The notes below the pieces were generated by a model. The model worked only from the letters and a program-made list of their open reading frames with translations, was not told the DNA's origin and searched no databases. The position numbers were made by a program, and so were the translations under genes. Below are positions 18,742-37,256 of a stretch of 64,000 nt of DNA, piece after piece; the first letter of the stretch is position 1, and the number at the start of each line of letters is the position of its first letter. This DNA comes from a virus (taxonomy: Duplodnaviria; Heunggongvirae; Uroviricota; Caudoviricetes): IMG/VR virus record IMGVR_UViG_2657245091_000008; one strand, 5' to 3'.

Positions 18742-18761
18742 TCAAATCATTTACGCACTCA

Positions 18762-18806
18762 AAATTACGTTAGAACATTGATTTTAGTTTTCTAACATAT
18801 TATTTT
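18762..18806. promoter_or_regulatory. Operator-like motif pair upstream of 18840 gene
   Basis: CGTTAGAACATTGATTTTAGTTTTCTAACATATTATTTT. Confidence 0.45.
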
Positions 18807-18839
18807 ACCGCTCGGAACAAAACAGAGTCGGTATGCATT

Positions 18840-19835: not shown

Positions 19836-19871
19836 TGAGATGGTTCGGATAATTCTTGGCGGGAATAACGA

Positions 19872-20750
19872 GTGACTATGCATCAAGTCGTCAGTTTTTC
19901 AGGTGGACGAACATCGGCCTATCTCGTCCATCTGATGGAGGCACAGCGAAAAGCTGGCGCTAGCGTCCATTTTATTTTTATGGATACCGGCTGTGAACAT
20001 CCTCTGACGTATCGCTTTATTCGTGAGGTTGTGAAGTTCTGGAACGTACCGCTAACGGTGTTGCAGGTCGATATAAATCCAGAACTTGGGCAGCCAAATG
20101 GTTATACGGAATGGGAGCCAAAGGATATTCAGACGCGAATGCCGGTGCTTAAACCGTTTATGGACATGGTTAAAAAGTACGGTACGCCATACATCGGCGG
20201 CGCGTTCTGTACTGACAGGCTAAAACTCACCCCTTTCACGAAATATTGCGATGACCATTTCGGACGAGGGAATTACATCACATGGCTGGGTATTCGTGCA
20301 GACGAACCCCGTAGGCTGAAACCGAAACCGGGCGTCCGGTATCTTGCCGAGCTGTCAGATTTTGATAAGTCGGATGTTATCCGGTGGTGGCGTAAACAAC
20401 CTTTTGATTTGCAAATCCCGGAGCACCTCGGGAACTGTGTTTTCTGCATCAAAAAGTCAACGCAAAAGCTGGGGCTTGCATGTAAAGACGAACCAGGTCT
20501 GATGCGAGTTTTTAATGAGCTGGTTACAGGCAAACACGTCAGGGATGATCATCGCAGAACAGGTAAAGACATTATGTACCGTGGTCACCTGACGCTTGAC
20601 GGAATTGCCAGAATGTCTGCCAACAGCGACTACAGAAATTTGTATCAGGCGATGGTACAGGCCAGGCGATTCGATACCGGCTCGTGTTCAGAGTCATGTG
20701 AAATCTGGGGTGATCAATTGGAATTGAAATTCGAAGAGGTAGTGGCATGA
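19872..20750 (+). CDS. PAPS reductase-like / PP-loop ATP pyrophosphatase family protein
   Basis: N-terminal VVSFSGGRTSAYL PP-loop (SGGxDS-like) and overall PAPS-reductase-like length. Confidence 0.7.
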   Translation: MTMHQVVSFSGGRTSAYLVHLMEAQRKAGASVHFIFMDTGCEHPLTYRFIREVVKFWNVPLTVLQVDINPELGQPNGYTEWEPKDIQTRMPVLKPFMDMVKKYGTPYIGGAFCTDRLKLTPFTKYCDDHFGRGNYITWLGIRADEPRRLKPKPGVRYLAELSDFDKSDVIRWWRKQPFDLQIPEHLGNCVFCIKKSTQKLGLACKDEPGLMRVFNELVTGKHVRDDHRRTGKDIMYRGHLTLDGIARMSANSDYRNLYQAMVQARRFDTGSCSESCEIWGDQLELKFEEVVA

Positions 20751-20950
20751 CAATCGTAAAAACCCATACCGGTACCGTGATCACCAAAGATGGCCCGCAG
20801 GTAAAAAAACTGCACCAAACAGAGCGGATGTGGGTCGTTGGCAAAAACGAGTTTTACCACAAAGAAACTGGACGCCGCCATTTTGCAGAAAATACGCGCC
20901 GCCGACTGCTGTTAGACACCATCAAGCCTATCGAGGTGAAGCATGTTTAA
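20747..20950 (+). CDS. Hypothetical protein
   Basis: 67-aa ORF, overlapping stop/start. Confidence 0.4.
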   Translation: MTIVKTHTGTVITKDGPQVKKLHQTERMWVVGKNEFYHKETGRRHFAENTRRRLLLDTIKPIEVKHV

Positions 20951-21182
20951 ACAGAACGAAAAAGCTATCGCTCAAATTGCTGATTATATCCCGCGTGCGT
21001 GCCGGGGTATGCAGTTGCAGGAAGCCAAAGCGCGCCTGGAGAAAAAAATTGCGCTCTATATTGATGACGGCTGTGATGCCGCCGTTCTTAACGAGGCGTT
21101 CGCACCAGCTCTTAACAGTCATACTCGGGAGTCTTTTTTTTCGTGCATCGCAGCGCAACTCCACCAAGGAGGCATCCAGTGA
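20943..21182 (+). CDS. Hypothetical protein
   Basis: 79-aa ORF, overlapping stop/start. Confidence 0.4.
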   Translation: MFKQNEKAIAQIADYIPRACRGMQLQEAKARLEKKIALYIDDGCDAAVLNEAFAPALNSHTRESFFSCIAAQLHQGGIQ

Positions 21183-21823
21183 GTAACCGTTTTTACATGA
21201 TGTGCTTGCGTGAAACTGTGGGTAATAACGCCTCATTCCATTGCCATAACGGCAATGGTTACAGTTCTGATATCGATCGCGCTCATATTTACACGCTGGA
21301 AGAAGCCCAAAAAGCCTGGAATTGTGGGCGAGATATCGATCAGCCTGTTTGTGCCGATAGTGTGGATGCAATGGCTGTGTGGCACGTTGATTGCCAGTAC
21401 ATCCCTACAGAAAGCCTGATTGAGTCAGATTGCACTGCGTATGTGGCCTACAAAAAAGGTAGCTGGAACGGCAACGATGTTTACTGGCTTCAACACGGTG
21501 GATTGCCAACAGATGACTTCAGTAAAGCGACCATCTTTAGCGTCGCCAACAAAAACGAACCAGGAATAGTTTGGTTGCCATTTTCCATTGCTGATGCAGC
21601 AAAGCGCCGGACGTTCAATATCAATAACTTTAACCGCAGAACAATGGTTCAGGGCGCAGGTTTGGTCATGCCTGACTGGTTGAAAGAGCAGAACAGAAGA
21701 AAGAAGTCGCGAAGCGGGAAGGTGCGTTGGAATTGTCCGCATTGCGGAAAAATAACCTGGCAGTACAGCCCATATGATTTTGAAGGCTGTAGTGATTACA
21801 ACTGTGAAGGATGGCGAGAATGA
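21179..21823 (+). CDS. Hypothetical protein with C-terminal zinc ribbon
   Basis: GTG 21179 preceded by AAGGAGG (GTGA overlap with upstream stop); C-terminal CPHCG...CSDYNC. Confidence 0.5.
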   Translation: MSNRFYMMCLRETVGNNASFHCHNGNGYSSDIDRAHIYTLEEAQKAWNCGRDIDQPVCADSVDAMAVWHVDCQYIPTESLIESDCTAYVAYKKGSWNGNDVYWLQHGGLPTDDFSKATIFSVANKNEPGIVWLPFSIADAAKRRTFNINNFNRRTMVQGAGLVMPDWLKEQNRRKKSRSGKVRWNCPHCGKITWQYSPYDFEGCSDYNCEGWRE

Positions 21824-22398
21824 CAATTGACTATCAAGAACTGCGCGAGGCAGCGGAACAGGCAACTCAAGACGAATGGGTAGCATATATTTTGCCGGGT
21901 CATAACGGCATTTATCCTGCGCGCACGTCTGAGGGTAGGCATTGCGGATACTTTATTGACTGTCCTGGCATTGATGGACAAAGGAATGCTGGTGCTAATG
22001 CCCGTTATATTGCGGCTATCCCACCAAAAGTTGCGCTGGCACTCCTGGGCGAAATTAAGCGCCTGGAAGACACAAATATTGATGCCATGTGCCGAATTGC
22101 AGAACTGGAAGCACGGGAAATAAAACCAGCCAAAGGCGAAGTTCTTGTCGTTGTATCTGGTTTTACTGGTTGCGGAAAAAGCGCCATTGCCGGGGAAATA
22201 GAAATTGCGATGAAGGCTATTGGTGTACCGGTTCAGTGGACTAATGGCGATGCAGAAAAGCGCATGACTGGTGCTGACTGGCTGACAGCAATTGAGATGT
22301 ACAAACCAACTGTGCGCATCGTGGAAGTTAATGTGCCACGCGTCGCTGGCATTCGCATCAAAGGAGACGCAGGAGAGCAAAACGATGAAAAACCGTAA
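21811..22398 (+). CDS. Ead/Ea22-like protein
   Basis: N-terminal ELREAAEQATQDEW...NARYIAAIPPKVALALLGEIKRLE typical of Ead/Ea22-like prophage proteins. Confidence 0.55.
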   Translation: MARMTIDYQELREAAEQATQDEWVAYILPGHNGIYPARTSEGRHCGYFIDCPGIDGQRNAGANARYIAAIPPKVALALLGEIKRLEDTNIDAMCRIAELEAREIKPAKGEVLVVVSGFTGCGKSAIAGEIEIAMKAIGVPVQWTNGDAEKRMTGADWLTAIEMYKPTVRIVEVNVPRVAGIRIKGDAGEQNDEKP

Positions 22399-22574
22399 AG
22401 CAAAGATTCTGTTAGTTCGTAGAAACGCTCCTGGCGTCTGGCAGTGGGTGAGACTCAGCAACCGACGGATGGGGTTGATGAAATATTACGGGATGATGGA
22501 TTGTGGTTTTTGCAAAAAGCCCAGCGCGGCGCAAAACCGCTGGAAAAACCACTTGCGCACTAAAGGAGAGTGAT

Positions 22575-23090
22575 ATGGCGTTAACACACCGCGAACTCTG
22601 TCAGATTGCGTATAAGTTCCTTAAGCGCAACGGGTTCAAGGTTTGTTTTCATGACCGCTTTATAGCTGTAACCAGTACCGGAGAACAGCCAGATGCTATG
22701 GGATTCAGAAATTCAGCATCATGCCTGATAGAGGCGAAGTGTTCTCGTGCTGACTTGTTGGCAGATAGAAAAAAGCGTTTTCGTAAAAATCCATCTCTTG
22801 GAATGGGCGACTGGCGATTCTTTATTAGTGAGCCGGGAATTATTTCAGTTGAGGATTTACCACCTGGCTGGGGATTACTTCACGTTGTTAACGGAAGAGT
22901 ACGGAAAGTACATGGGTGGCCCAAGGGTAATTGCTGTTGGGGTAATCCTGACGATAAGCCATTTACTGGAAATAAGCAGGTTGAATGCGATTACATGTTA
23001 TCTGCATTAAGGCGCATGGAGTTGAGAGGGCACCTTAATGAAATATATGACGGTGTAATTGTTAATAAGAAAGAAGGAAACGCGGCATGA
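22575..23090 (+). CDS. Hypothetical protein, possible PD-(D/E)xK nuclease fold
   Basis: ATG 22575 after AAAGGAGAG RBS; PDAMGF...LIEAKCS resembles a D...E.K catalytic triad. Confidence 0.4.
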   Translation: MALTHRELCQIAYKFLKRNGFKVCFHDRFIAVTSTGEQPDAMGFRNSASCLIEAKCSRADLLADRKKRFRKNPSLGMGDWRFFISEPGIISVEDLPPGWGLLHVVNGRVRKVHGWPKGNCCWGNPDDKPFTGNKQVECDYMLSALRRMELRGHLNEIYDGVIVNKKEGNAA

Positions 23091-23950
23091 TCACTATTAC
23101 CAAAGAGCGACTGCTGACAATCAAGCAGTGGCGCGAAACATACGGACCTGATAGCAACGTTGTACTGCCAGCAGAAGAAGCGGAAGAACTGGCGCGTATC
23201 GTGCTGGCATCGCTGGAAGCAGAGCCTGTTCTGTATCAGTCCTGCACTCGCCCCACCTGGAATAGCGGTGTTCCGTGGACGGAATGGAAAGAACGTAGTC
23301 GTGAGTGCTACGAAGACGATTTGCGTTTTACAGACACGCCTGACCATGCCGGTTGGATATACAAATGTCGAAAACTATATACCACTCCGCCAGCGCCGAT
23401 AGCGTTAGAGGCCATTGAAAACGCAATTGAATACATTCGTAGTATCGCTTTTCACATCGATGAAGACGATTACCACGGCAAACATATTGCGTATTTCATG
23501 CGACAAGCATTGGCCTGGCTGGAAGGGCATTCATGCAGCGACGACAGACTGGGTAAAGCCGACAATCAACCAGTACGCGGCAACCAGGCTGCCGAATCCA
23601 ATCGCGGTAATGAGTGGACCGGCAATCCTGATATTGATAACGCCATCATCATGCTCGACCGCATAGATACGCTGGAAAATTGCGATGATGACCGTATTGA
23701 GGCTGTTAAGGCTGTTTTGCGTAGACTGGCAGGCAACTCTCCGGTAACTCCGGATGGTTGGATAAGCTGTAGTGAGCGAATGCCGGATAAGTTAATTCCG
23801 GTAATGGTCATGTATGAAGACGGTGAGATGTGGTCTGCAATGTGGAATGGTAATCGCTGGGATGATGGCACCGAATATCCGGATCCGCACTCAGTTACGC
23901 ACTGGCGTGAAATGCCAGCAGCACCGAAGCAGGAGGTTAACCGTGGCTAA
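23087..23950 (+). CDS. Ead/Ea22-like protein with C-terminal DUF551 domain
   Basis: N-terminal Ea22-like region; C-terminal DGWISCSERMPDK...VTHWREMPAAP matches DUF551 pattern. Confidence 0.6.
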   Translation: MITITKERLLTIKQWRETYGPDSNVVLPAEEAEELARIVLASLEAEPVLYQSCTRPTWNSGVPWTEWKERSRECYEDDLRFTDTPDHAGWIYKCRKLYTTPPAPIALEAIENAIEYIRSIAFHIDEDDYHGKHIAYFMRQALAWLEGHSCSDDRLGKADNQPVRGNQAAESNRGNEWTGNPDIDNAIIMLDRIDTLENCDDDRIEAVKAVLRRLAGNSPVTPDGWISCSERMPDKLIPVMVMYEDGEMWSAMWNGNRWDDGTEYPDPHSVTHWREMPAAPKQEVNRG

Positions 23951-24242
23951 CCTGCAACTTGCCGTTAAAGGTGAATACTTCGATGCCATGATTCGCGGAG
24001 AGAAAACGGAAGAGTATCGCCTGTGTAATGACTACTGGAATAAGCGAATTATGTTCCGGGAGTATGACCGCCTGATTATCACAAAGGGATATCCGAAGCG
24101 CGACGACTTCAGTCGCAGAATTGACGTCCCGTATAACGGATATGAAATAAAAACAATCACACATCCCCACTTCGGCGATAAACCGGTAAAGGTGTTCGCG
24201 ATAAAGGTAAAATTAACACGGAGTAATTATGTGGCGCGGTAA
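23943..24242 (+). CDS. ASCH/DUF3850-like small protein
   Basis: GTG 23943 after AGGAGG (overlaps upstream stop); KGEYFDAMIRGEKTEEYRLCNDYW resembles DUF3850. Confidence 0.45.
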   Translation: MANLQLAVKGEYFDAMIRGEKTEEYRLCNDYWNKRIMFREYDRLIITKGYPKRDDFSRRIDVPYNGYEIKTITHPHFGDKPVKVFAIKVKLTRSNYVAR

Positions 24243-24522
24243 TAATCATGGCGGAAGCCAGATGATACTTACCGAATATACGTTCGACCACAAAACCAAT
24301 AAATCACGTTCAGTATATTTGCTTCGGCACAATAGCCGCGTAAGAAATACCGTGCTGGAGCAAAATCTGACCGTCGAAATGGATAATTTGGGAAACTTCA
24401 AGCCAACAATATCGCTTGATGATTTTCCGTGTGGTTTAAGCGAAAGAGAAGCAATGCTGAAATTAGCAGAATGGTTACAAAGATTGAGCATTGCTATTGA
24501 AGATAACTGGATTCAACCATAA
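24229..24522 (+). CDS. Hypothetical protein
   Basis: 97-aa ORF. Confidence 0.4.
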   Translation: MWRGNNHGGSQMILTEYTFDHKTNKSRSVYLLRHNSRVRNTVLEQNLTVEMDNLGNFKPTISLDDFPCGLSEREAMLKLAEWLQRLSIAIEDNWIQP

Positions 24523-24546
24523 TGAAAAACAGAAAGAAAGATTGCT

Positions 24547-24756
24547 ATGACAACATTTAGTAAATTCGCAGTAATTATGATTTTATTAATCCCCCTCACT
24601 GTTACAGCAGGGGAACAGCAACATTGCACAAAAGAGAATGAACACCCTTTCATCGTTATTCAATGCGATGACGGAACGGTGACTGTGGTTAATGTAAGAA
24701 ATGACCGTGTAGCTGTTTGCCGTAAAGGCGAACCATGCAAGGAAATAAAACTATGA
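24547..24756 (+). CDS. Small secreted Cys-containing protein
   Basis: 69 aa with signal-peptide-like MTTFSKFAVIMILLIPLTVTA. Confidence 0.45.
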   Translation: MTTFSKFAVIMILLIPLTVTAGEQQHCTKENEHPFIVIQCDDGTVTVVNVRNDRVAVCRKGEPCKEIKL

Positions 24757-25502
24757 CAAGAATCACTAAAGAGCGTATTTCAGATATTATTTCCCGTATC
24801 GAAATGTATGGTCACGGTGCTGGATACACAGCAGATGAAGTATTGGAGCTTGCCAAAATAGCTTTAGCGCCTTGCAAGGATGGTAAAGCTATGACACTGA
24901 TTGACTTGTTAGTGAAGGAATTATCTAAGGGGCGTGGATGGCCTGATGGAAAAGATTTTTGCCATCTATCCATTACGATGCCAGGTAGTAGTCGCGCTAC
25001 GGTTCTTTTTGGTACGCGCCATAAAAATTACCAATCATCAAAGAATTATTCCATTGATGGCATTATTTGCGATATCAGTGACCTTGATCGCAGTGCGTTT
25101 ACATCGGTTGTCACTCGTGAACAGTATGAAGCAGCTCGCATAGCGTCTCAGAAAGTTAAGTCTGAAAGTAAGGCTTACAAGTTAGATTTTGAGCAATGGC
25201 TGGAACAGCAACGCGGGAAAATCGATGTGGACTGCGGTTGTGTGTCTGCGGAAACATTCATGCACTGGTTGCGGGTAGCTTATGAGGCTGGCAACCATCC
25301 GGATTTTCCGGATAGTTCCCAACAATCGCCCAAGAAAAGCGTAAAAACCACTCTGGAAAGAGGCTATCTTGAGGCCGCATTAAAGATTAAGCCGGGCCAT
25401 ACGCTAGGCGTCATTGATGCCATGTTGGTTCATGAAATGGCTAAGGCTTTATTGCCACTGGTAGCAGATCAACATGAGGCGAGTCATGCCAACGAAAGCT
25501 GA
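24735..25502 (+). CDS. Hypothetical protein
   Basis: 255-aa ORF. Confidence 0.5.
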   Translation: MQGNKTMTRITKERISDIISRIEMYGHGAGYTADEVLELAKIALAPCKDGKAMTLIDLLVKELSKGRGWPDGKDFCHLSITMPGSSRATVLFGTRHKNYQSSKNYSIDGIICDISDLDRSAFTSVVTREQYEAARIASQKVKSESKAYKLDFEQWLEQQRGKIDVDCGCVSAETFMHWLRVAYEAGNHPDFPDSSQQSPKKSVKTTLERGYLEAALKIKPGHTLGVIDAMLVHEMAKALLPLVADQHEASHANES

Positions 25503-25770
25503 ACTACAGACGCGTGTAGAGGAACTTGAAAAAGAGAACGCTGGCCTCAAAAAAATGCTGGCCCGGGCAGAAAGGGAGTTGTCCGGCAAACTTCTGCCAG
25601 AAGAACTGCCACCAGCAGATATACCCGAGCGAGTGTCCCGGTGGATGAAATCTTTTTGTTTGCCGTGGGAGACTTTTTGGTGCTACGACCATCGCAGATG
25701 GTGTGATGAGCTTGATAGCAGTTTCCCCTATTTTGCGGAAGGGAACTCTTGCCCTGAATGTAGGAGTTAA
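25474..25770 (+). CDS. Hypothetical coiled-coil / Cys-pair protein (tandem paralog A)
   Basis: C-terminal LPWETFWCYDHRRWCDELDSSFPYFAEGNSCPECRS paralogous to next gene; likely starts at MPTKAEL (25486). Confidence 0.5.
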   Translation: MRRVMPTKAELQTRVEELEKENAGLKKMLARAERELSGKLLPEELPPADIPERVSRWMKSFCLPWETFWCYDHRRWCDELDSSFPYFAEGNSCPECRS

Positions 25771-26075
25771 TGATGACCGGCGAGCTTTATTTTAAAATGG
25801 CACGGGAGCGGCGTGTGCATCTGGATCGGATATTTCATCTCCAGAAGAGAGTAGAAGAACTGGAACGTCGTCTGAACTGTTATCCTGTTGATATGGTGTC
25901 TGCAATACCGCCGATTCCAATAGAAATGCAGATCCGCCTATGGATGGAAGAATATGGAATGCCGTGGGAGATATTTTTCTGCTTCGACCATAAACAGTGG
26001 GTAGATGAGCTGGATAATAGTTTCCCATATTTCACAGAGAACACATGCCCAGTATGCAGGAAGAACGGAATATGA
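25770..26075 (+). CDS. Hypothetical coiled-coil / Cys-pair protein (tandem paralog B)
   Basis: C-terminal MPWEIFFCFDHKQWVDELDNSFPYFTENTCPVCRKNGI. Confidence 0.5.
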   Translation: MMTGELYFKMARERRVHLDRIFHLQKRVEELERRLNCYPVDMVSAIPPIPIEMQIRLWMEEYGMPWEIFFCFDHKQWVDELDNSFPYFTENTCPVCRKNGI

Positions 26076-26596
26076 CAAAATTTGGAAAGCTGGAAGCTCA
26101 TTTGCTAACTCGTAACTACCGCCATGATATACACCCATATAGACAGTGGATCGATGAAAGCGAAGGAGTAGTTACATTCCCTCTATACAGGTTTGATGGG
26201 ATGTTGGCTGGGTATCAGACATATAGACCAGGTGCTCCTAAGCAGCATAGCAATCCGAAGATGGCCCGGTATTTCACGCGATCACACGGCAGACAGTTAC
26301 TTTGGGGAACCTATCTTCCTTTAAAAGATGGCCCAATATGGATAACTGAGTCTATTTTTAAGAGCGCAGCTGTACACAACGCGGGCGGCAATTCGTGGGC
26401 GCTGTTAGGTTCAACTTTCTCCGCAGGATTACGCCGTCAACTTGCGATGCTGCCGTATGACTTTCGTGTAATAGGTGACAATGATGCGGCTGGTGAATCA
26501 CTTGTGAAGTCTTTCGGAAAAGGTTTTGTGGCCCCGGATCTTGACGAGCTACAACCACATGAAGTGTCTCATTTGATTTTTAGCCATAGCCAATAA
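26072..26596 (+). CDS. Hypothetical protein, possible Toprim-like acidic motif
   Basis: 175 aa from MTKFGKLEAH; contains IGDNDAAGE. Confidence 0.4.
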   Translation: MTKFGKLEAHLLTRNYRHDIHPYRQWIDESEGVVTFPLYRFDGMLAGYQTYRPGAPKQHSNPKMARYFTRSHGRQLLWGTYLPLKDGPIWITESIFKSAAVHNAGGNSWALLGSTFSAGLRRQLAMLPYDFRVIGDNDAAGESLVKSFGKGFVAPDLDELQPHEVSHLIFSHSQ

Positions 26597-26804
26597 GCAT
26601 CTCTCCCCTTTGAGGTCACAATTAGTGGCCTTAAACAATGTGTTTTCTACCTCGATTTAGCCTTTATTATCGTTTTGCATTTCTCTAATCCGGGCAACGA
26701 GGTTACGCTGATCCGTTGGTGATGAATAGTAGCAAAGCGCACAAAATCATCAGCGGTGGTTGATGTACGTAACGCGTTTGCACCAAAGGTGTCTCTTTAA
26801 TGTA

Positions 26805-26824
26805 TACTGTATAAATGAACAGTA
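26805..26824 (+). promoter_or_regulatory. LexA (SOS) box upstream of humD
   Basis: TACTGTATAAATGAACAGTA = CTGT-N8-ACAG, 20 bp upstream of humD start. Confidence 0.65.
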
Positions 26825-26843
26825 TCATTGAGGTGAAAACGCT

Positions 26844-27233
26844 ATGGGCTTCCCTTCTCCTGCGGCGGATTATGTTGAAAGCCGAATTTCTCTTGATCAG
26901 CAACTAATCAGGCATCCATCAGCAACCTACTTCATGCGGGCGGCAGACAGCCATCACCGTGAGGGAATATTGCAGGGTGCTTTGCTGGTGGTTGATTCTT
27001 CGCTTACTCCAGTTGATGGTTCGCTGCTTGTGTGCGCTATGGAGGGTGAATATCGCATAAAGAGATACCGAAAGTATCCGCGCCAGCACCTGGAGGATTT
27101 AAGCACCGGGAAGAAAGAGGCGTTACCAGTAGATGACGATGGTTACACGGGTAGTAATGCTGTTTTTGGTGTGATCACTCATGTCATCAATGATGCCCGA
27201 AGTGGGGAGTTTGATGATTGTCCGGTCATTTAA
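26844..27233 (+). CDS. humD: HumD, UmuD'-like translesion polymerase accessory protein (LexA/S24 peptidase fold)
   Basis: 129 aa starting MGFPSPAADYVE (UmuD' form without N-terminal cleavage segment); adjacent to phd-doc as in P1. Confidence 0.85.
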   Translation: MGFPSPAADYVESRISLDQQLIRHPSATYFMRAADSHHREGILQGALLVVDSSLTPVDGSLLVCAMEGEYRIKRYRKYPRQHLEDLSTGKKEALPVDDDGYTGSNAVFGVITHVINDARSGEFDDCPVI

Positions 27234-27305
27234 GCTGCAAAGTGCTGGTGCTTTATGCCTGTGAAGTTTATGATTGTGTACACATAACGAGTACACGAGG
27301 TGTTT

Positions 27306-27527
27306 ATGCAGTCCATTAACTTCCGTACCGCGCGCGGCAACCTTTCTGAATTGCTCAACAATGTTGAAGCCGGGGAAGAGGTTGAAATCACCCGCAGAGG
27401 CCGTGAACCAGCAGTAATTGTCAGCAAGGCTACTTTCGAAGCCTACAAAAAGGCGGCGCTGGATGCTGAATTTGCATCCCTGTTTGACACCCTGGACTCC
27501 ACCAACAAGGAACTGGTTAACCGATAA
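27306..27527 (+). CDS. phd: Phd antitoxin (prevent-host-death)
   Basis: [49 protein letters not shown]... essentially matches P1 Phd as I recall it. Confidence 0.9.
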
Positions 27528-27907
27528 TGAGGCATATATCACCGGAAGAACTTATTGCGCTTCATGATGCGAATATAAGCCGCTACGGCGGCCTGCCGGG
27601 AATGTCAGATCCGGGTAGGGCAGAGGCCATTATCGGGAGAGTTCAGGCCAGAGTTGCCTACGAAGAGATCACCGACCTTTTCGAAGTCTCCGCAACCTAC
27701 CTGGTGGCTACTGCGAGAGGGCATATATTCAATGATGCCAATAAGCGTACCGCGCTAAACAGTGCGCTGCTATTTCTACGCCGTAACGGTATACAGGTAT
27801 ATGATTCTCCCGTGCTGGTGGAACTTGCGGTGGGGGCTGCAACTGGTGAAATCCCCGTATCTTCAGTAGCGGAAAAACTACGTGAACTATATGGTTCCAA
27901 TATTTGA
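27527..27907 (+). CDS. doc: Doc toxin (death-on-curing, Fic fold)
   Basis: [39 protein letters not shown]...[23 protein letters not shown] matches P1 Doc; ATGA overlap with phd. Confidence 0.9.
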
Positions 27908-27936
27908 AAAGAAGCCCGCTCAACCAGGCGGGCTTC
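27903..27936 (-). terminator. Intrinsic terminator ending the 31822-to-27943 minus-strand operon
   Basis: On minus strand GAAGCCCGC-loop-GCGGGCTTC followed by TTTTCAAAT. Confidence 0.55.
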
Positions 27937-27942
27937 CTACTA

Positions 27943-29049
27943 TCACTCAATGATTTTTTCTGCTGTCAGCCAGCTAATTTCTTGCCTGTCTTTCGGCGGT
28001 TTTAGCATGTGGGCGTATTCAGCAACATTCTCCCACGGAATTGTTTTTGCCCACTCAACGATAGCATTGTGATCTGCAGTGAAGAGTGGAATGGTGTGCG
28101 ATTTCAACCACTCCAATGTTGTAACGCCATGTTTTTTGGCGTGGTGCTGTGCATGATGCCGGGCTATCACTCGTAATGGCATTATCCATTCACTACCATC
28201 AGGCATCGAAAAGCGCATTGTCTTCGGCATATCTGATTCAAGAACAGCCTCCCTAATACCAGGAAACTCACCAAGAACCATACGACGGTAGTAATCGCTG
28301 TTTTTACCACCATATATTTCTGCAATGTTATCAAGATAACCTTGAGAAATAATGGGGGTATCTTCTGCGTTCAGCTTGATGGCTGTATAAATACCACATG
28401 GATTTTCTTCTGATTTAGCACGACCATGATGGGAATCGTAAAAGTGTCCATGCTCCTCCTCTGAAGGAGCGGACATTAAAAGTATACGTGAATCGTCACT
28501 TACTAACGATGCTCTTAACATGCTGAATAGCCGATCGCCAGCAAGAGCCGCCTCCGTAACAATGATTAAAAGATGTTCAGCATAATATCCACCGAAACCT
28601 TCCTCATAATTTCGGTGATATGGCTTAATTTCGCAGCCCCAATATTCCCGGTAACGATGATTGATGCCGTTTCCATCGACTTTAAAATATTCTCCCAGCA
28701 ATGGGATTCTGTTACTGACTCTATCCCAATACGTACTTATGTATTGGATAACTTGCCTGCGACAATTATAGAACTTTGGGGAAACAATAACCGTTTTAGA
28801 CTCAGGCATCAGGATTGTATAAAGAATACTAATTATAGCGATAACCGTCTTTTGGCCTATCCCTTCAGGAGTGGTGACGCTGACTGCTGAACCTTTTTGT
28901 TGAATCGCCTCAACAATTAGCTTTTGCTGGTGGGTTAACTTAACACCCATCAACTCTTCTGCTGCTAATGCCCAGTCATGGCTATATTTGCTTACCAGCT
29001 CTCTCCACTCTGGTAATTCGGTGATGTTTTTAGGCGTCAGCATCAGCAT
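27943..29049 (-). CDS. Terminase-large-subunit (PacB) ATPase-domain paralog, degenerate, no nuclease domain
   Basis: Aligns with the PacB ATPase domain encoded at 34384-35892 (HQQKLIVEAIQQKGS...; FYDSHHGRAKSEENPCGIYTAI vs FYDSHHSQAKTPDNPKGIWTAI); Walker A becomes EGIGQKT, Walker B LDE becomes VTE; 368 aa vs 502 aa. Confidence 0.6.
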   Translation of the reverse strand: MLMLTPKNITELPEWRELVSKYSHDWALAAEELMGVKLTHQQKLIVEAIQQKGSAVSVTTPEGIGQKTVIAIISILYTILMPESKTVIVSPKFYNCRRQVIQYISTYWDRVSNRIPLLGEYFKVDGNGINHRYREYWGCEIKPYHRNYEEGFGGYYAEHLLIIVTEAALAGDRLFSMLRASLVSDDSRILLMSAPSEEEHGHFYDSHHGRAKSEENPCGIYTAIKLNAEDTPIISQGYLDNIAEIYGGKNSDYYRRMVLGEFPGIREAVLESDMPKTMRFSMPDGSEWIMPLRVIARHHAQHHAKKHGVTTLEWLKSHTIPLFTADHNAIVEWAKTIPWENVAEYAHMLKPPKDRQEISWLTAEKIIE

Positions 29050-29836
29050 CCTCCGCTACCTCTGCCTCCACATCTGCCGCGACTTCATCGGACTGTTCTT
29101 CTTTGGCCTGTTCTGCAATCGCCGCACGGCATTTGGCCCTTGCTGTGGCGATTGCTTCAGCACGCACATCATCAGGAATCGTTGACGTGATATACATATC
29201 CAGTTCTTCGGCGCGGAACACTGTTTGGTCCAGATATTCGCGTAGCATCCAGGTAAATTCGAAATCACACGCGATAATCTCTGCGCTACCTTCTGCACCA
29301 TTTGGGAAATGAATAAATGCCTGTTTAGCCAAACCGATAACACGACATGCGGTTGCCAAAACAGCGACAACCAGATTTACATTTTCACACGCTACGGGCT
29401 GATTAACGCCGGAGATTACTCCATTTAACTGTCGGTTATATGGAAGGTAGTTTGAGATGCGTTCTACGCGCCATGTGCCAGTCAGGCTGCCATTTTTAAA
29501 GATAATTGGTGTAACGGATAGCCCAAGCTCGCGTATAAGTCGTTGCGCTATAGCAGGATCATTAAACAGGTCTAATGCTACACATTCGAAAGACTGCGCA
29601 AGGGCAAACAGTTCTTCCAGAGAGTAGTCTTTGCCCCTGGCGGTGATGTAACGACGAACGCCGCTGTCTGCATCACTCCATATAGCTACGCCATGCTCTT
29701 CATTCAGTTCTTCATTAAAGCCGAGATACGTCATGATAGTGCGTTCAATCGTGTCAAACGGCAGTGACATGTCGGCGTTAACAGCCACCAGCAGGCCATT
29801 ACGCAAGCGGTATTGAATTGTTTTGGTGCTTTCCAT
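29030..29836 (-). CDS. Hypothetical protein with acidic C-terminal tail
   Basis: 268-aa ORF in same operon; C-terminal Asp/Glu/Ala-rich tail. Confidence 0.5.
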   Translation of the reverse strand: MESTKTIQYRLRNGLLVAVNADMSLPFDTIERTIMTYLGFNEELNEEHGVAIWSDADSGVRRYITARGKDYSLEELFALAQSFECVALDLFNDPAIAQRLIRELGLSVTPIIFKNGSLTGTWRVERISNYLPYNRQLNGVISGVNQPVACENVNLVVAVLATACRVIGLAKQAFIHFPNGAEGSAEIIACDFEFTWMLREYLDQTVFRAEELDMYITSTIPDDVRAEAIATARAKCRAAIAEQAKEEQSDEVAADVEAEVAEDADADA

Positions 29837-29842
29837 GTCAAA

Positions 29843-30499
29843 TTACTCCACTACAAACCAGTCACATGCCAGTAAATCAGCAACAGACGGCAACCAAACG
29901 TTGTCTATATTTTGCGCATCCTTCAATACAAAATGGTCGCCATAAGGAACCTGAATGTCGTGGAAATTGACGCACCCAGCTAGAACTAACCAGCAGCATT
30001 GCTTTTCGCCTTTCCACCCGCGTCGAGATACCTTTCTTCCTTCTTTCAACCACGTCAGCGCGACAGAAAAGTCGGCTGCTTCAAGGTCGATTTCTTCTTG
30101 TTGGGTAGTGATACCACCAGCAGAAATAGTTACGTCCCTGGCTGTAATGAATGTCACCCCATTGTGACCTTCAATCCTGAGCGATACCCCATTTTCGAAG
30201 ATGTCGTTAGTTCGACTAAAGCCATCTTTAAATTTCTTTTCTGATAAACAGGACAGATGACCTTCTTCATCAACGACAAGATAGCCGCCAACTTGTGGTA
30301 GGTGTTTTTGCAAAAACATTGCATCAACATAGATTCTTACTCCTTTGGGTTCTGTGACCTCGATTTCACCACAATTAGGCATCACAGGAGTAATACCACC
30401 GATGTATTTGATATTCTTGATTTTCGATGCACTAACGTTTTTGTGAGCTTTGTATTTGGGAAGGAACTTAAAAAGCTCTTTCGTTGCCATGTTATTCAT
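29843..30499 (-). CDS. Hypothetical protein with C-terminal DUF2829 (Tad2-like) domain
   Basis: C-terminus ALTWLKEGRKVSRRGWKGEK...VWLPSVADLLACDWFVVE fits the DUF2829 pattern as I recall it. Confidence 0.5.
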   Translation of the reverse strand: MNNMATKELFKFLPKYKAHKNVSASKIKNIKYIGGITPVMPNCGEIEVTEPKGVRIYVDAMFLQKHLPQVGGYLVVDEEGHLSCLSEKKFKDGFSRTNDIFENGVSLRIEGHNGVTFITARDVTISAGGITTQQEEIDLEAADFSVALTWLKEGRKVSRRGWKGEKQCCWLVLAGCVNFHDIQVPYGDHFVLKDAQNIDNVWLPSVADLLACDWFVVE

Positions 30500-30513: not shown

Positions 30514-31008
30514 TTATAACTTTTCGTACTGAAGCGGTGAACGCTTAATTTCAAAGTGGCCTTCCGATGTGCTACCAAAGCCACCAGCACCACGTTCCGT
30601 TTCGTTGAGTTCCTCAACCTCGACTAGTGAGACTTGTTCAACACGCTCAAAAATGCCTTGCATGACAGCCATTCCAGGCTTGAGACAAACGCCTTCCCCG
30701 CCGGGATCAGTAATCAGTTTTGCCATGATTTCACCGCGATAATCGGAGTCGATAATTCCTACGCAGTTAGCCAGGCGAGTATGTTTTTTGCAGCCCAATC
30801 CGGATCGCGGATAGAGTTTCAGACACCAGCCGGGCGGGATCTCCATAGCCAGTCCGGTATACACCCACCAGCTTGAGGAAATTGCACCATTGCTATCGAC
30901 GCATGGTTTTATTTCAACAGCCTCAAAATCCATCGCCGCCGATCCGGAGGTGGCATAAGCTGGAAGTTTTGCTGCCGGATGTAGGCGTTTCACTTTTACG
31001 TAAATCAT
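30514..31008 (-). CDS. dut: dUTP diphosphatase (trimeric dUTPase)
   Basis: dUTPase motifs: GSAAMD, PRSG, GIIDSDYRGEI, RGAGGFGST. Confidence 0.8.
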   Translation of the reverse strand: MIYVKVKRLHPAAKLPAYATSGSAAMDFEAVEIKPCVDSNGAISSSWWVYTGLAMEIPPGWCLKLYPRSGLGCKKHTRLANCVGIIDSDYRGEIMAKLITDPGGEGVCLKPGMAVMQGIFERVEQVSLVEVEELNETERGAGGFGSTSEGHFEIKRSPLQYEKL

Positions 31009-31481
31009 TGTTTTTTAGCTCTCTGCGTGAAGGTGTAAACCCGACGTTTGATATGTGGAACGGTAGGAACAGGAAGACAGGAACTTTCAATAACTCCTTG
31101 CTCCTCCAGCGATCGCACCGCCCGCAAGAACTGCGACGTGTCGCCGCCAAACTGGCGGGCATAGGTGCTGCCGTTATGAAGTATTTGAGCTATTACCCGA
31201 GCTTTTGTCTGGCTGACACGATATGCGAATAGCCGCACGGCCTCTTCTGGCGCAATCGCTAACTGATAGCCTTTCCCGGCACGGTGTCGAATGAATCCAT
31301 GCGCCAGTAGGTTTTTGAGTTCGTTACGAGTGCGAACAGATCCGTAATCCAGGAAGTGTGGATTGATAACGACTGGCTTAAACCATTCCGTAGGTGCTTT
31401 AGCTAATAGAGCTAACAGCTTCCCGGATAATTCTGGATAGGAAGACGGGTAACAATTCAGAGATGGGTAATAAGTTTTCAC
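31005..31481 (-). CDS. Hypothetical protein
   Basis: 158-aa ORF, overlapping stop/start in operon. Confidence 0.5.
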   Translation of the reverse strand: MKTYYPSLNCYPSSYPELSGKLLALLAKAPTEWFKPVVINPHFLDYGSVRTRNELKNLLAHGFIRHRAGKGYQLAIAPEEAVRLFAYRVSQTKARVIAQILHNGSTYARQFGGDTSQFLRAVRSLEEQGVIESSCLPVPTVPHIKRRVYTFTQRAKKQ

Positions 31482-31822
31482 CGACGCCCCCTTGCAGGAT
31501 ATCGACCTGCATTAGTATCCGGTGCAATAAAGCCGGTAGTGGGGCGAGTGAAAGCGAGATTAATCTTCTCGACCATAGTGCGATAATTTTCCTGATAGTG
31601 GGCCAGGAGTTTTTCGGCGGCAATGATGGTTACTTTCCGGACGTAGCTTTCTGCTTCCTCCAGATTTCGCCAGTTTTTTTCGAGGGTAAACACAGGGACG
31701 GCCTCAAGCCCGGTCATGATGCCGAACACAACGACAGCATGACTGTTCTTAACACCAGCGGCGAAGGTTACGGTGTAACCATCCACCTTGAAGCGTCTTG
31801 ATTCCGTGATTTGACTCTGCAA
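31478..31822 (-). CDS. Hypothetical protein (first gene of operon)
   Basis: 114-aa ORF; operator-like motif about 55 bp upstream. Confidence 0.5.
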   Translation of the reverse strand: MQSQITESRRFKVDGYTVTFAAGVKNSHAVVVFGIMTGLEAVPVFTLEKNWRNLEEAESYVRKVTIIAAEKLLAHYQENYRTMVEKINLAFTRPTTGFIAPDTNAGRYPARGRR

Positions 31823-31876
31823 AGCACCCTCCTAAATAGGCGAGGGTACTTTACAGCAAAGGCGTTAATCTAAAAA

Positions 31877-31897
31877 GATGTGTTAGAAATTTAATTT
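31877..31897. promoter_or_regulatory. Operator-like motif upstream of the 31822-to-27943 operon
   Basis: GATGTGTTAGAAATTTAATTT. Confidence 0.45.
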
Positions 31898-32924
31898 ACG
31901 AATCCATCAGGCGGCTATTAGCCCCCACAGACACGCCGCCACGGCGAAGATACCGCATAAGTGTTTCCGGTTTCTTCCAGGTTCCTTCCTGCATGATCTC
32001 CACCATAGACACCTGCTTTTCAGCCATATCAATAGCGGCCCCGACGCGTGCACTATGCCCGGTCCACGTCCGGTATCTTCCTTTGTTTGGCGTAGCATCT
32101 CTTTTATTCAGCAACACCCAGGCGTCGCTGAATATTTTCTCCATTGCAGGTGCAGTAAGGGGTGTTGTCGTGATCCTGGCCTTATTGCTACGGTGTATCG
32201 GCGGGAACAGCACTGCGTCAGGATGTTCGCGAAGCCCGGAAACATCCAGCCAGTCATTCAGCACAGCGGTAGTGCGACGGGAAAGCACCTTATCAAGCCC
32301 GGCGGCGGTCGTTATTGTCTTCGTGTGTGAAATATGTAGCGTGACAGTGTCACCTGTTTGATCCAGATCTCCTACACGAATACGCGAGATTTCCGACATA
32401 CGCATCAGCGTATTGTATGCAACAAAGAGAAAAGCCCGGTTGCGCAGGTCCACCAGCCGTTCTGACCTGGACAACAGGACGTCGAGCAGTTTCAGATCGT
32501 CCCACCGAAGCGGTATAGCCTGGCCTGTTCGTTCGCCTTTTTCAGTTGCCGCTTCGCGCCGGATGCGCCGCATAGCCAGAGAAACACTTTTATCATCCGA
32601 AAGTGGCGGAAGACCACAATGCGAAAGCAGCATGTTCAGCATGGCGTAGTGCTTATCAATGGTGGTCGAAGCCAGATCGGCATCATGCAGCTGAAGAAAA
32701 TACTCGCGGGCCATTTCTGGTGAGATCGGAAACCAGGCAAGCTGGCGAGCGTGACACCAGCGCGCCCAGGAATGAAACACCAACCGGAGGTCGCGCAGAG
32801 TATTCGGCGCATAAGCCCCCTGGTCATTCATGAACCGCATAAAGTTTTCTGCGGCTTCCTGGTACTCTTTGCCAATGTTGCGCAGAAAACCACCGGAACT
32901 GCCAGAGATAATTAATTCACTCAT
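31896..32924 (-). CDS. cre: Cre-like tyrosine site-specific recombinase
   Basis: Collinear similarity to P1 Cre (SWARWCHARQLAWFPISPE, VSLAMRRIRRE, AYNTLMRMSEISRIRVGDL, WTGHSARVGAAIDMA); R-H-R-Y-type catalytic residues present; divergent, not identical. Confidence 0.85.
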   Translation of the reverse strand: MSELIISGSSGGFLRNIGKEYQEAAENFMRFMNDQGAYAPNTLRDLRLVFHSWARWCHARQLAWFPISPEMAREYFLQLHDADLASTTIDKHYAMLNMLLSHCGLPPLSDDKSVSLAMRRIRREAATEKGERTGQAIPLRWDDLKLLDVLLSRSERLVDLRNRAFLFVAYNTLMRMSEISRIRVGDLDQTGDTVTLHISHTKTITTAAGLDKVLSRRTTAVLNDWLDVSGLREHPDAVLFPPIHRSNKARITTTPLTAPAMEKIFSDAWVLLNKRDATPNKGRYRTWTGHSARVGAAIDMAEKQVSMVEIMQEGTWKKPETLMRYLRRGGVSVGANSRLMDS

Positions 32925-33076
32925 GAAACTATTTGACCTCTATATACAGATGACGCTACGCGAAAAATATAAAAATGACAGGGTAGCTATAAGTTAATTT
33001 TCAAAATACAAGCCTTTGATTCGAGGCACGTATTTTCAGTGATGTCAACACTGTTCATCTACACATGATTATAGCC

Positions 33077-33108
33077 TAACTTTAAATAATGCCAATTATT
33101 TAAAGTTA
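33077..33108. other. lox-like recombination site candidate
   Basis: TAACTTTAAATAAT-GCCA-ATTATTTAAAGTTA, perfect 14-bp inverted arms (or 12-bp arms with 8-bp spacer ATGCCAAT); arms share TAACTT and ATA with loxP arm ATAACTTCGTATA; about 150 bp upstream of cre-like start. Confidence 0.5.
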
Positions 33109-33285
33109 CAGAATGGCGATTTTTTTTAATCCATCATAGATTGATTTTGACCAGTAACACGTTGCCTTCATGGTCTTTAATTTGCGAAGTGTGGTTTATA
33201 CAGTTGGTTTTCTAAAATTGATGACAAAAAATCACAGTTCGATCCTTTACTCACTCTGTTATTCGACATAAATTTGTCATAGTAA

Positions 33286-33307
33286 TTTTATGTTAGAAAA
33301 CTAAATC
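33286..33307. promoter_or_regulatory. Operator-like motif upstream of 33319 gene
   Basis: TTTTATGTTAGAAAACTAAATC. Confidence 0.45.
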
Positions 33308-33318
33308 GAGTAGGAATA

Positions 33319-34356
33319 ATGAGTAAGAAGTCGATCGAGAAAGAGTACAAACGGTTCCTGCAAACCGCTGAACGGTGGAAAGAGCTGGTGGTCGCAAACT
33401 CTGTTTTCCATGATACCAGTTATGCTGGCGAGGAATTCCGCCATGTTGCATTAACGCATGACCAAAACATATTAGAAGAAGCTGAAAAATGTCTTGCTGA
33501 ATGGAAAGCCTTCGTTGACATGTGCCGCGATGCCGACGGCAAAGCGTCGAACATTGTTGAGTCTGTATATTCTCCGATCCCATTCATCATTGAGGACACC
33601 AATCAAAGCACGCATGTTGTTGTGCAAAGCGCTACAACAACACGTACATTTACACGTGAACAATTGCTCAAAAAATACGACAAAATCATAAAGAAAAGCC
33701 TGAAAAATAGGGTTTTTTCTCAAATTGTAGGTGCTCTTGAAGAAGAACAGCGCTTCTTTGAAGCTGAGCCTGAAGGCGAGATCTACCGGGCGCGTAAAGA
33801 GGCATATACAGATGTTGTGCTGACAACAAACATCGAAGGCAGCAATGCCCTTTCTCGCTTTAGAGTTGGCGCACATGGCGCATTGGTTTTCGCAAGACTA
33901 CCGAAGACAACGATCCCCGTTGTCAATAATGTTGGTGAACGCCGGAGCATTACAATTTATTCAGGCGTCGAATCGGTACCTTGCAGCCTTCTCGGCGATT
34001 TTAACTTATATCGTGTTCGTGACCTGGAAAAACACCAGCCAAGCTACGTTGCGAAGTCGTACATCTTAAGGAACATCGATATTCGCAATGAAAGCCTTAA
34101 GCAGAAATCCGCTAAGATGCTGGAGGATGCCGATCCGGCTATTCGCCATATCATTGAGCGTAAGATACGTACATCACGTGAAGCAATGGCAAGGCTGGAT
34201 AAAATGGATCTGGAATTGTTAGACGTAATGATGGCCTCTGGAGACGACCTGACCGGCATTAAACTGAATGAAGCTCGTAAAAAATACGGCAAAGCAATCG
34301 AAGAACGTTACGGATACACATTCCCCCAAACGCAGTACGCCGCGAAGCTCTGGTAA
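33319..34356 (+). CDS. Hypothetical protein occupying the c1-like position (convergent with pacB)
   Basis: 345-aa ORF; operator-like motif overlaps its promoter region; no HTH recognised. Confidence 0.5.
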   Translation: MSKKSIEKEYKRFLQTAERWKELVVANSVFHDTSYAGEEFRHVALTHDQNILEEAEKCLAEWKAFVDMCRDADGKASNIVESVYSPIPFIIEDTNQSTHVVVQSATTTRTFTREQLLKKYDKIIKKSLKNRVFSQIVGALEEEQRFFEAEPEGEIYRARKEAYTDVVLTTNIEGSNALSRFRVGAHGALVFARLPKTTIPVVNNVGERRSITIYSGVESVPCSLLGDFNLYRVRDLEKHQPSYVAKSYILRNIDIRNESLKQKSAKMLEDADPAIRHIIERKIRTSREAMARLDKMDLELLDVMMASGDDLTGIKLNEARKKYGKAIEERYGYTFPQTQYAAKLW

Positions 34357-34364
34357 TCACAACC

Positions 34365-34390
34365 GGCCCCGCATCGCGGGGCTTTATATA
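34365..34390 (+). terminator. Intrinsic terminator after 33319-34356
   Basis: GGCCCCGC-ATC-GCGGGGC followed by TTTATATAT. Confidence 0.5.
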
Positions 34391-35892
34391 TCCAGATCTG
34401 GCATTTCGATATCCGCCAGAACCTGATCTCGGAAAGTTGCCATTTCGGCACCAATATCTTCATTAGCAGGCACATAGTCCACCAGCATAGTGAAGCAGTA
34501 GGTATCCCATCGGTCAGGCGATTTGATGTTTAGCTTTTGCCGCATGTGCTCTTTGCGCATCATCGCCATTTTCCCTTCCTCATTCAGTAAAAAGGGGATT
34601 TTTGACGCTTGCTCTGCCGTTTTAGGGTCACTGTCTATCCGCATACGCCCTGACTTTATGGCATCACGCGCCATAATATTTGCGTAGGCACGCTGATTAA
34701 CAAATCGCTCCCTGTCTTTGTTCGCAAACATGGGTTTTCCCCACCGAATACGTACCGGGTTCGCACCACGACGCACCAACTGCGCACACGTATCAGAACC
34801 AAAACCATCGGCATCAACCGCGATTGTTATATTCGGGTATTTTTCCGGCGTACATTCGTTATATATAAAGTCAGCAAAGGCCAATGGGTCCATAGTGCCA
34901 GGCATCTCCATTACCTTAAAGTTAACAACGCGCCGCTTATCCCTGTGACCAGATACCTTGCAGATGTTGAGGACCGACTTATCTCGCCCATTACCAACGT
35001 CAGCCGTTGCCACCCATCCCCAGTTTTTCTCCAACAACACCTTGCGGCGAGCAGCGCGATCGCATTCATCACGACCAAGCAAATAGCCGTTAATTTCTCG
35101 TGGGAACTGACCAAGCACCTTGACCATATACTCAATAGAATCGCGCCCACCATATTCCAGAAGCTTCTGCTTGATGAATTGTGGTGTGACGAACGGTGAT
35201 TCTTCCGAGTTAAGAACAATTGCTGTCCAGATCCCTTTCGGGTTGTCTGGGGTTTTTGCTTGAGAATGGTGCGAATCGTAGAAATAACCACTTGGCCTTG
35301 TTGGCTGGGATAGCATCAACATCCGGTTATCTTCTTCAGTAAGAGCACCGGTCATTACGCCGATCGCCTTATCAGATATACCAGATGCTTCATCCAGAAT
35401 TAGAAGCAAATGTGCCGCGTGTTCCCCCGCCAGCGCTTCTTCGTTGCCGAGTCGATAACCTTTGCAGAGAACTTCCCAAATCCCCTTACGGGAGCGCTCA
35501 TAAAACATGGTGTCAGAGAGGACAAAATAGGTCTGCAACCACCCATGACGCTTAACTGCATTCGCCCAATACTGTTTAACGTATTTGAATACGCCTGTTT
35601 TTACCTGGCCTATCTTGTTAGCAACAATGATGACACGGGCATCGGGGAACAGGATCATAAAAATCAACAGCAACATCGCGGTAAGGGACGACTTCCCCGT
35701 TCCGTGTCCGGACGTGACGGTCGTCCTACTCCCCGTTTCCTGCACTGACTGAATGATCTGCTGCTGCTGGTGGGAGGGGAACATCCCAAAAATATCGACA
35801 ACAGCCTGGGTAAAGTTGTAGCGGTATTTGATTACCATATCGCGCCAGCGTGGATCGCTGGTGACGCATTTAATCTTGCGCCCGCCAGCCAT
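34384..35892 (-). CDS. pacB: Terminase large subunit (PacB-like)
   Basis: 502 aa; Walker A VTSGHGTGKSS, Walker B LLLILDEAS, C-terminal acidic nuclease-like residues; directly follows pacA-like gene. Confidence 0.8.
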   Translation of the reverse strand: MAGGRKIKCVTSDPRWRDMVIKYRYNFTQAVVDIFGMFPSHQQQQIIQSVQETGSRTTVTSGHGTGKSSLTAMLLLIFMILFPDARVIIVANKIGQVKTGVFKYVKQYWANAVKRHGWLQTYFVLSDTMFYERSRKGIWEVLCKGYRLGNEEALAGEHAAHLLLILDEASGISDKAIGVMTGALTEEDNRMLMLSQPTRPSGYFYDSHHSQAKTPDNPKGIWTAIVLNSEESPFVTPQFIKQKLLEYGGRDSIEYMVKVLGQFPREINGYLLGRDECDRAARRKVLLEKNWGWVATADVGNGRDKSVLNICKVSGHRDKRRVVNFKVMEMPGTMDPLAFADFIYNECTPEKYPNITIAVDADGFGSDTCAQLVRRGANPVRIRWGKPMFANKDRERFVNQRAYANIMARDAIKSGRMRIDSDPKTAEQASKIPFLLNEEGKMAMMRKEHMRQKLNIKSPDRWDTYCFTMLVDYVPANEDIGAEMATFRDQVLADIEMPDLDI

Positions 35893-37256
35893 TAATCATC
35901 CTCCGGCGGTTCTATCGCGATATCATCATCTCCGGCGTCATACCCTGCATCAGATGCATCATAATCACCGTAAATTTCAGCCGTTGCCGAAGGGTCAATA
36001 TCCAGCTCTTCGTCGTTGGCCTCGAATTCTCCAGCTTTACGCTCGCCATTGCGGTCGTAATCTCCGCACCCCAATTCTTCAACAATGGTTGCCACATCCG
36101 CCCGGCGCTCTGCCAGCCATTGCGGATGGTTAGCCTGAAGCGTTGCAAACTCCCTTGCCTCTTTGTCCAGCTGTTCATCATCAACATCATTGACGTCAGA
36201 AACAGGTGGTTCGAGAAGAGTGATAGCTTTCGCCGCGCGCGCCGCGAGGATAGCCGGGACGCTGACCCCCTGGCGCTCGATGTATTCAGCAACACCGATA
36301 TCATCCAGTTCCTCGCGCTCACGCATACGTATAGCGGCGGCGATAACTCTGGCAGCGCGTGCGTCAGCGCCAATGCGATATTCAATCTCTTTGCCACGCT
36401 GTTCGGCCTGTAGGCGTGCTAATTCGAGTTTTTCTCTGGCCTCAGCCTCTTTGAATGCTTGCTGGCGAGCGCTCTGACGAAGCTTTTCATCCCCCTGTCG
36501 CAGCTTTTGTTCGGACTGATATATAGCTGCCAACCTACTGATAAAATCATTCATGTAGTAGGCCGCGTCACTGATTAGACCGAGAAGGCGCTGCCCAGGG
36601 TGCATTCCTTCTGGCTCTTTATCGCCCAAGGCGTCTATTTCCGCCTGTAGACGTTCGGCCTCCTGATCAACAATGCTTTGATACTGAAGTGCGCGCTCTT
36701 GCGCCATTTGAATTGCTAACCGCAGGTGTTCTTCTGCGCCGTTCTTCATCATATCGCGAGCCACATTCGTAGTGGGCAATGTGGCACGCTGCACAGCACC
36801 GCCAGGGATCATTGCTGAAGATCCCTCAATTTTTGGGGCGCTTTTATCTTCTTCGGGGATCATTTTCGCCATTTTTTCGCGCAATGATCTCCTGACAGAT
36901 TCTTTTATCTCATTGTTATTATTGGTATTACTTTCATGATCCGAAGTTTTCTTTCTTGGCATACTTCGGAAAGAACCTGCACCCTGCGAATTGTCAATTT
37001 CTGTAAATTTTGTTTTTTCTGCACCCTCTTCCAGCTTTTTTGTTGCTCTTCCCGCCCGTTTTTTTTCAGGTGATTTGGTGCTTTTTTTTGTTGTCTTTAC
37101 CTGCGACCGCACCTCATTTTTTTTCATATTGAGATGCTTTCTGGCTGTATTGAAGCTAAGACCATGCTCCTCACAGTATTCCTTTACAGTGATCCCTTTT
37201 TCTTCACGCAACGCTATAAAGCGGGCGCGGTGCTCCTCCCAATTAACCAGACTCAT
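35892..37256 (-). CDS. pacA: Terminase small/pac-recognition subunit (PacA-like)
   Basis: 454 aa; N-terminal HTH-like region, highly acidic C-terminus; GATC-rich pac-like cluster inside 5' part; ATGA coupling with lpa-like gene upstream. Confidence 0.7.
   Translation of the reverse strand: MSLVNWEEHRARFIALREEKGITVKEYCEEHGLSFNTARKHLNMKKNEVRSQVKTTKKSTKSPEKKRAGRATKKLEEGAEKTKFTEIDNSQGAGSFRSMPRKKTSDHESNTNNNNEIKESVRRSLREKMAKMIPEEDKSAPKIEGSSAMIPGGAVQRATLPTTNVARDMMKNGAEEHLRLAIQMAQERALQYQSIVDQEAERLQAEIDALGDKEPEGMHPGQRLLGLISDAAYYMNDFISRLAAIYQSEQKLRQGDEKLRQSARQQAFKEAEAREKLELARLQAEQRGKEIEYRIGADARAARVIAAAIRMREREELDDIGVAEYIERQGVSVPAILAARAAKAITLLEPPVSDVNDVDDEQLDKEAREFATLQANHPQWLAERRADVATIVEELGCGDYDRNGERKAGEFEANDEELDIDPSATAEIYGDYDASDAGYDAGDDDIAIEPPEDD
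36800..36945. other. pac-like packaging site candidate (cluster of GATC-containing hexamers)
   Basis: Five GATC within about 140 bp (36807, 36820, 36858, 36886, 36938), four in TGATC(C/T) hexamers, inside the 5' region of pacA as in P1. Confidence 0.4.

Follow-up and report, generated by a model that had tools for sequence, protein, structure and literature searches.

The locus analyzed here lies in a stretch of 64,000 nucleotides (referred to below as the window) and comprises a gene for a divergent Cre-like recombinase and a palindrome in the adjacent intergenic region. It raises the question of whether these two components represent a natural Cre/lox-type pair of altered specificity, in which the palindrome is the target of the enzyme, as an earlier note made from the sequence alone had proposed, and, if so, whether such a pair has already been described.

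In a megablast search of positions 31800-33400 against phage records, the match was Escherichia phage D6 (97.1% identity), in which the gene is annotated as "dre: tyrosine recombinase". At the protein level, the product encoded in the window is 100% identical to Dre (AAV84949.1; 342/342 residues). The collinearity with P1 Cre and the identity of approx. 40% estimated in the earlier note were borne out by BLASTP against P1 Cre (E = 4e-77, 41% identity over 322 residues). Independent confirmation came from a PDB sequence search, in which Dre residues 22-341 were collinear with Cre residues 21-340 (E = 5e-69, e.g. 1NZB), the match spanning the N-terminal as well as the catalytic domain. Pfam analysis of the recombinase identified Phage_integrase (5e-17) and also Phage_int_SAM_1, the latter (2.6e-4) slightly under the curated cut-off.

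The catalytic R-K-H-R-W residues and the tyrosine nucleophile (R175, K202, H290, R293, W316 and Y325) are all found in the Dre protein of the window; five of these (R175, H290, R293, W316 and Y325) have been given as Dre catalytic residues at the same positions (PMC4777119). The alignment with Cre that the earlier note had suggested places the specificity residues R44, P259 and K263 of Dre opposite K43, R259 and G263 of Cre (BLASTP alignment). The transfer of the Dre/Panto residues at these three positions into Cre resulted in activity on rox (PMC4957104).

The palindrome adjoining the gene, TAACTTTAAATAAT-GCCA-ATTATTTAAAGTTA, is composed of two 14-nt arms, 100% complementary to each other, and a 4-nt spacer (14-4-14). 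The complete site, TAACTTTAAATAATGCCAATTATTTAAAGTTA, is therefore 32 bp long, not 34 bp as stated previously. It corresponds letter for letter to a misc_recomb feature of GenBank AY753669, annotated there as "region of crossover (rox) site for Dre recombinase", and it is also identical to the wild-type roxP used in recombination experiments (PMC4777119). The site begins 153 bp upstream of the ATG codon of dre, very close to the 150 bp that had been proposed, and it is the sole perfect, closely spaced inverted repeat within the 394-bp gap between dre and c1, in agreement with its description as the only strong palindrome of the intergenic region.

On the scale of the entire 64-kb window, rox is the longest of all perfect palindromes whose spacer is at most 10 nt. 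The next-longest ones are terminator-like, GC-rich hairpins with 10-12-nt arms, and an arm of 14 nt was reached in none of 30 block shuffles, in which the largest arm was 11 nt. Neither a further copy of rox (up to three mismatches) nor an additional rox half-site (up to two mismatches) was detected in the 64-kb window, the whole element being approx. 95 kb. The same holds for loxP, whose presence elsewhere in the element had been named as an argument against the proposed pair: it is absent from the 64-kb window when up to three mismatches are allowed. When rox and loxP are compared in register, 21 of the 32 positions match, including the TAACTT and ATA of each arm that the earlier note had pointed out, and 11 differ. 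The positions of rox, dre and the neighboring features are collected in Table 1.

Table 1. Features of the dre-rox region (positions refer to the window).
Feature	Position	Strand	Remarks
114-aa ORF, 158-aa ORF and dut, downstream of dre	30514..31822	-	order as orf2, orf3, dut of AY753669
dre, Cre-type tyrosine recombinase	31896..32924	-	342 aa, ATG start; same protein sequence as D6 Dre
candidate sigma-70 promoter for dre	33068..33095	-	consensus match 11/12
rox, 32-bp target of Dre	33077..33108		14-bp inverted arms TAACTTTAAATAAT, asymmetric 4-bp spacer GCCA; exact AY753669 rox
c1, prophage repressor homologue	33319..34356	+	345 aa; corresponds to c1 of AY753669 and D6_1 "prophage repressor" of MF356679
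pacB, terminase gene	34384-35892	-	position and length as in AY753669 and MF356679
pacA, terminase gene	35892-37256	-	position and length as in AY753669 and MF356679

The genetic surroundings of the module are those of a P1-type element. The genes c1 and dre are divergently oriented on opposite sides of rox, and the packaging genes pacB and pacA (together 34384..37256, minus strand) are placed near the recombination site, as in P1. The product of c1 gave no match in Pfam; that of dut (30514-31008) matched the dUTPase family (1.7e-14). The local gene order, lpa-pacA-pacB-c1-rox-dre-orf-orf-dut, is the same in D6 and parallels that of P1. Moreover, the collinearity between the window and D6 extends across the rox junction (D6 coordinates 61995-91159 followed by 1-32271), and D6 matches span 85.5% of its length at approx. 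96% identity.

The possibility that the window is phage D6 itself was rejected, given the 97% identity and about 9 kb of DNA without a D6 match (approx. 14% of the window, mainly between 15.5 and 29 kb). The window most closely matches NZ_CP031917.1, a circular 95-kb plasmid from the E. coli O45:H2 strain FWSEC0003 (99.8% identity over 24 kb). D6-like plasmid prophages constitute a recognised group (PMC6799933).

The segments without a D6 counterpart are located at 15529-17245, 19841-22092, 22580-23390, 23760-25353, 25765-26789 and 27898-29064. The region 15529-29064 is a variable accessory-gene region of the phage-plasmid, and contains a second terminase-like ORF (27943-29049). An ORF placed just past dut (29843-30499, minus strand) is annotated as "Thoeris anti-defense Tad2 family protein" in NZ_CP031917.1 (L002 1050-1589); this ORF region has a partial match in D6 (approx. 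89%).

A search of complete E. coli genomes revealed matches to the dre-rox module in 124 out of 5,426. The matching places numbered 129, of which 126 were on plasmids of approx. 88-96 kb and 3 were chromosomal. The Dre/rox module is thus common in E. coli, and nearly always carried by phage-plasmids of approx. 90 kb.

The best explanation of these results, and one that we consider almost certain, is that this locus holds the Dre/rox module by which a D6-like plasmid prophage of the P1 family carries out site-specific recombination. No evidence against this identification was found. The proposal of a natural pair of altered specificity with the palindrome as target was therefore correct, the protein being Dre and the site rox. 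What the earlier note did not recognize is that the pair is already named and widely used, and hence is no new variant.

The implicit reading of that note, i.e. a new Cre-family recombinase with a so far unreported target specificity and a candidate for a novel tool, could draw on the identity with Cre of just 41% and on the mismatches with loxP at 11 of the 32 positions of the site. Set against this are the 342 residues shared with the published Dre, a site that is the published rox, and the previous re-finding of the same pair in E. coli strains (PMC4957104). Novelty is refuted by the identity of both components, and we give this reading practically no weight. Since the protein and the site are those of a published pair, the finding is already known, and its value as a discovery is small: Dre/rox has been known since 2004, when it was reportedly first described, in phage D6, by Sauer and McDermott. 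It is now a standard orthogonal partner of Cre/lox in the engineering of mouse, zebrafish, yeast and bacteria. The result is of value for calibration, in that a reading of the raw sequence alone correctly recognized the recombinase as a homologue of Cre and identified its true target.

A different role for the same components, namely that the recombinase is an integrase inserting the element into the host chromosome and the palindrome an attP-like site, might be suggested by the Pfam class, which is just "Phage integrase family", and by the three chromosomal places among the 129 in E. coli. However, one listed match of this kind extends over just 19% of the query (74% identity), and the 126 remaining places are plasmids of approx. 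88-96 kb. D6 itself has plasmid replication and partition genes, and the 32-bp symmetric core without arm-type sites resembles Cre/lox. An integrase/attP role was rejected on the grounds that nearly all matches are on plasmids, and we regard it as highly improbable.

For the Dre/rox module of a plasmid prophage, the course of recombination may be predicted from homology to Cre. Dre monomers would bind the two 14-bp arms of rox, and two rox sites would synapse within a Dre tetramer. Tyr325 would act as the nucleophile, forming a 3′-phosphotyrosine link with the help of R175, K202, H290, R293 and W316, and strand exchange would take place in two steps, via a Holliday junction, inside the central region of rox. 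Dre acts without accessory proteins. The form of rox consists of two inverted arms and an asymmetric center, without accessory arm sites (half-sites with up to two mismatches, searched in the window). The tetramer, the phosphotyrosine link and the Holliday junction are well-established features of the Cre family, known from structural and biochemical work. The precise cleavage positions in rox are still unsettled (PMC4777119).

The parallel with Cre/lox of P1 and the gene order conserved beside the packaging genes lead us to infer that Dre/rox most likely serves (i) to circularise terminally redundant infecting DNA, and (ii) to resolve dimers of the plasmid prophage, which would provide stable low-copy segregation. 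The presence of pacA and pacB a few kb away fits the former role. For a Salmonella prophage of the D6 type, multimer resolution is the role that has been assigned to this module (PMC6799933).

Comparison with D6 revealed 28 nucleotide differences within dre, all of which are synonymous (0 non-synonymous). A further 13 differences occur in the dre-c1 intergenic region and none of them falls within the 32-bp rox, although three (33109, 33111 and 33116) are no more than 8 bp beyond its right edge, the nearest being one base past it. This distribution of changes indicates that purifying selection is visible, at the level of the sequence, on both dre and rox.

Nine elements were included in a broader comparison (the window, D6 and seven further E. 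coli plasmids). The recombinases of the seven plasmids share from 341/342 to 305/342 residues with Dre, with DNA identity down to approx. 79%. The rox site is exact in five of these plasmids and carries a single changed base (T to C, right arm) in the other two, and is thus invariant in seven of the nine elements, even beside recombinases that are merely 89-94% identical to Dre. Its distance from the ATG codon is 153 bp in every element compared. In the alignment of relatives, rox stands out as invariant, the sequence varying on either side of it. Dre alleles that are 89-94% identical and share one common site could help to map the specificity-neutral sequence space, which would be of use in recombinase engineering.

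The variant of rox, ATTATCTAAAGTTA, was identified in plasmids of E. coli FDAARGOS_1289 and PSS-08-1 (L004 1778-1809, L005 1778-1809), which encode Dre proteins 340/342 identical to Dre. The T-to-C change, at the position corresponding to 33100 of the window, makes the arms imperfectly symmetric.

In NZ_CP031917.1 (L002), dre is annotated as a frameshifted pseudogene. The sole difference from dre of the window is one missing G, in the GGG run at window position 32279. Since the copy in the window is intact, the frameshift in the plasmid record probably reflects either an error of homopolymer sequencing in that assembly or a very recent mutation.

The most divergent relatives are pPEC148_3 (L008) and pBY68-1 (L009), in which Dre is approx. 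90% identical at the protein level and approx. 79% at the DNA level, and rox is exact. In these plasmids, dre-rox is placed amid fragments of IS26, IS1, IS30 and IS110 together with mph(A), and an IS1 remnant occupies the expected place of c1. An exact rox in such surroundings indicates that the dre-rox module survives in rearranged resistance plasmids (49-218 kb).

A candidate promoter for dre overlaps the recombination site. Its −35 hexamer (TTGGCA, 33095-33090) is located within the spacer and right arm of rox and is separated by a 16-nt gap from the −10 hexamer (TATAAT, 33073-33068). The −10 hexamer is TATAAT in eight of the nine elements (the window, D6 and six plasmids), with pPEC148_3 having TATGAT instead. 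A single promoter-like site was found, compared with 2.2 expected from shuffles, so what speaks for this promoter is the quality of the match and its conservation rather than any enrichment. Dre bound at rox would cover the −35 hexamer, and could therefore repress the candidate promoter and form an autoregulatory loop.

At the c1-side edge of rox (33109-33240; columns 185-320 of alignment A2), the similarity among D6-like plasmids collapses over approx. 130 bp. In this segment, which contains indels, some plasmid pairs are essentially unalignable, whereas the dre side is approx. 90-100% conserved. Conservation returns at GATCCTTTACTCAC (about 33241) and extends through to the start of c1. The variable segment could have been swapped by recombination at rox, or it could merely be unconstrained DNA. 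In the former case, rox could be a natural crossover point, at which the adjoining immunity-control segment is exchanged between co-resident phage-plasmids. The joint reading, in which Dre is autoregulated through the −35 hexamer embedded in rox and rox is also a natural crossover point, is tentative and, in our view, rather unlikely to hold as a whole. Neither dre autoregulation via rox nor a role of rox as a natural crossover was found described in the literature searched (the primary Dre paper excepted).

An inverted repeat, TTTTCTAA (33207-33214) and its partner TTAGAAAA (33293-33300), flanks the presumed c1 promoter region, and the corresponding alignment columns are invariant across the relatives. 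The two copies may be putative operator sites for a C1 repressor of the D6 type.

Among the named systems, the closest is Dre/rox of Escherichia (Salmonella) phage D6 (AY753669, MF356679), which has an identical protein, the same 32-bp site and the same 153-bp spacing. The neighbors lpa, pacA, pacB, c1, orf2, orf3 and dut are common to D6 and the window. Locally the two differ at the DNA level (97.1% identity), with the 28 synonymous changes in dre and the 13 intergenic changes described above.

The resemblance to Cre/loxP of phage P1 is more distant. The two recombinases share fold and family, are collinear at 41% identity and have the catalytic residues in common; both sites are built of inverted arms around an asymmetric center (with 21 common positions), and in both cases the module belongs to a plasmid prophage and has c1 and pacAB as neighbors. 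In contrast, rox is formally 14-4-14 and loxP 13-8-13, three positions of the arm differ (TTTAAA in rox, TTCGTA in loxP), and the specificity residues are R44/P259/K263 in Dre and K43/R259/G263 in Cre. For a protein and a site identical to those of the window, published experiments have shown that Dre recombines rox efficiently and that neither Dre nor Cre acts on the site of the other (PMC4777119; PMC12331466; PMC4957104).

The third system is Panto/pox of Pantoea sp. aB, which comprises a Cre-type recombinase and a site, pox, that differs from rox by one nucleotide in the arm and also in its spacer (PMC4957104). Panto is 52% identical to Dre, and each of the two enzymes recombines both rox and pox (PMC4957104). 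Unlike Panto, the protein encoded in the window is Dre itself.
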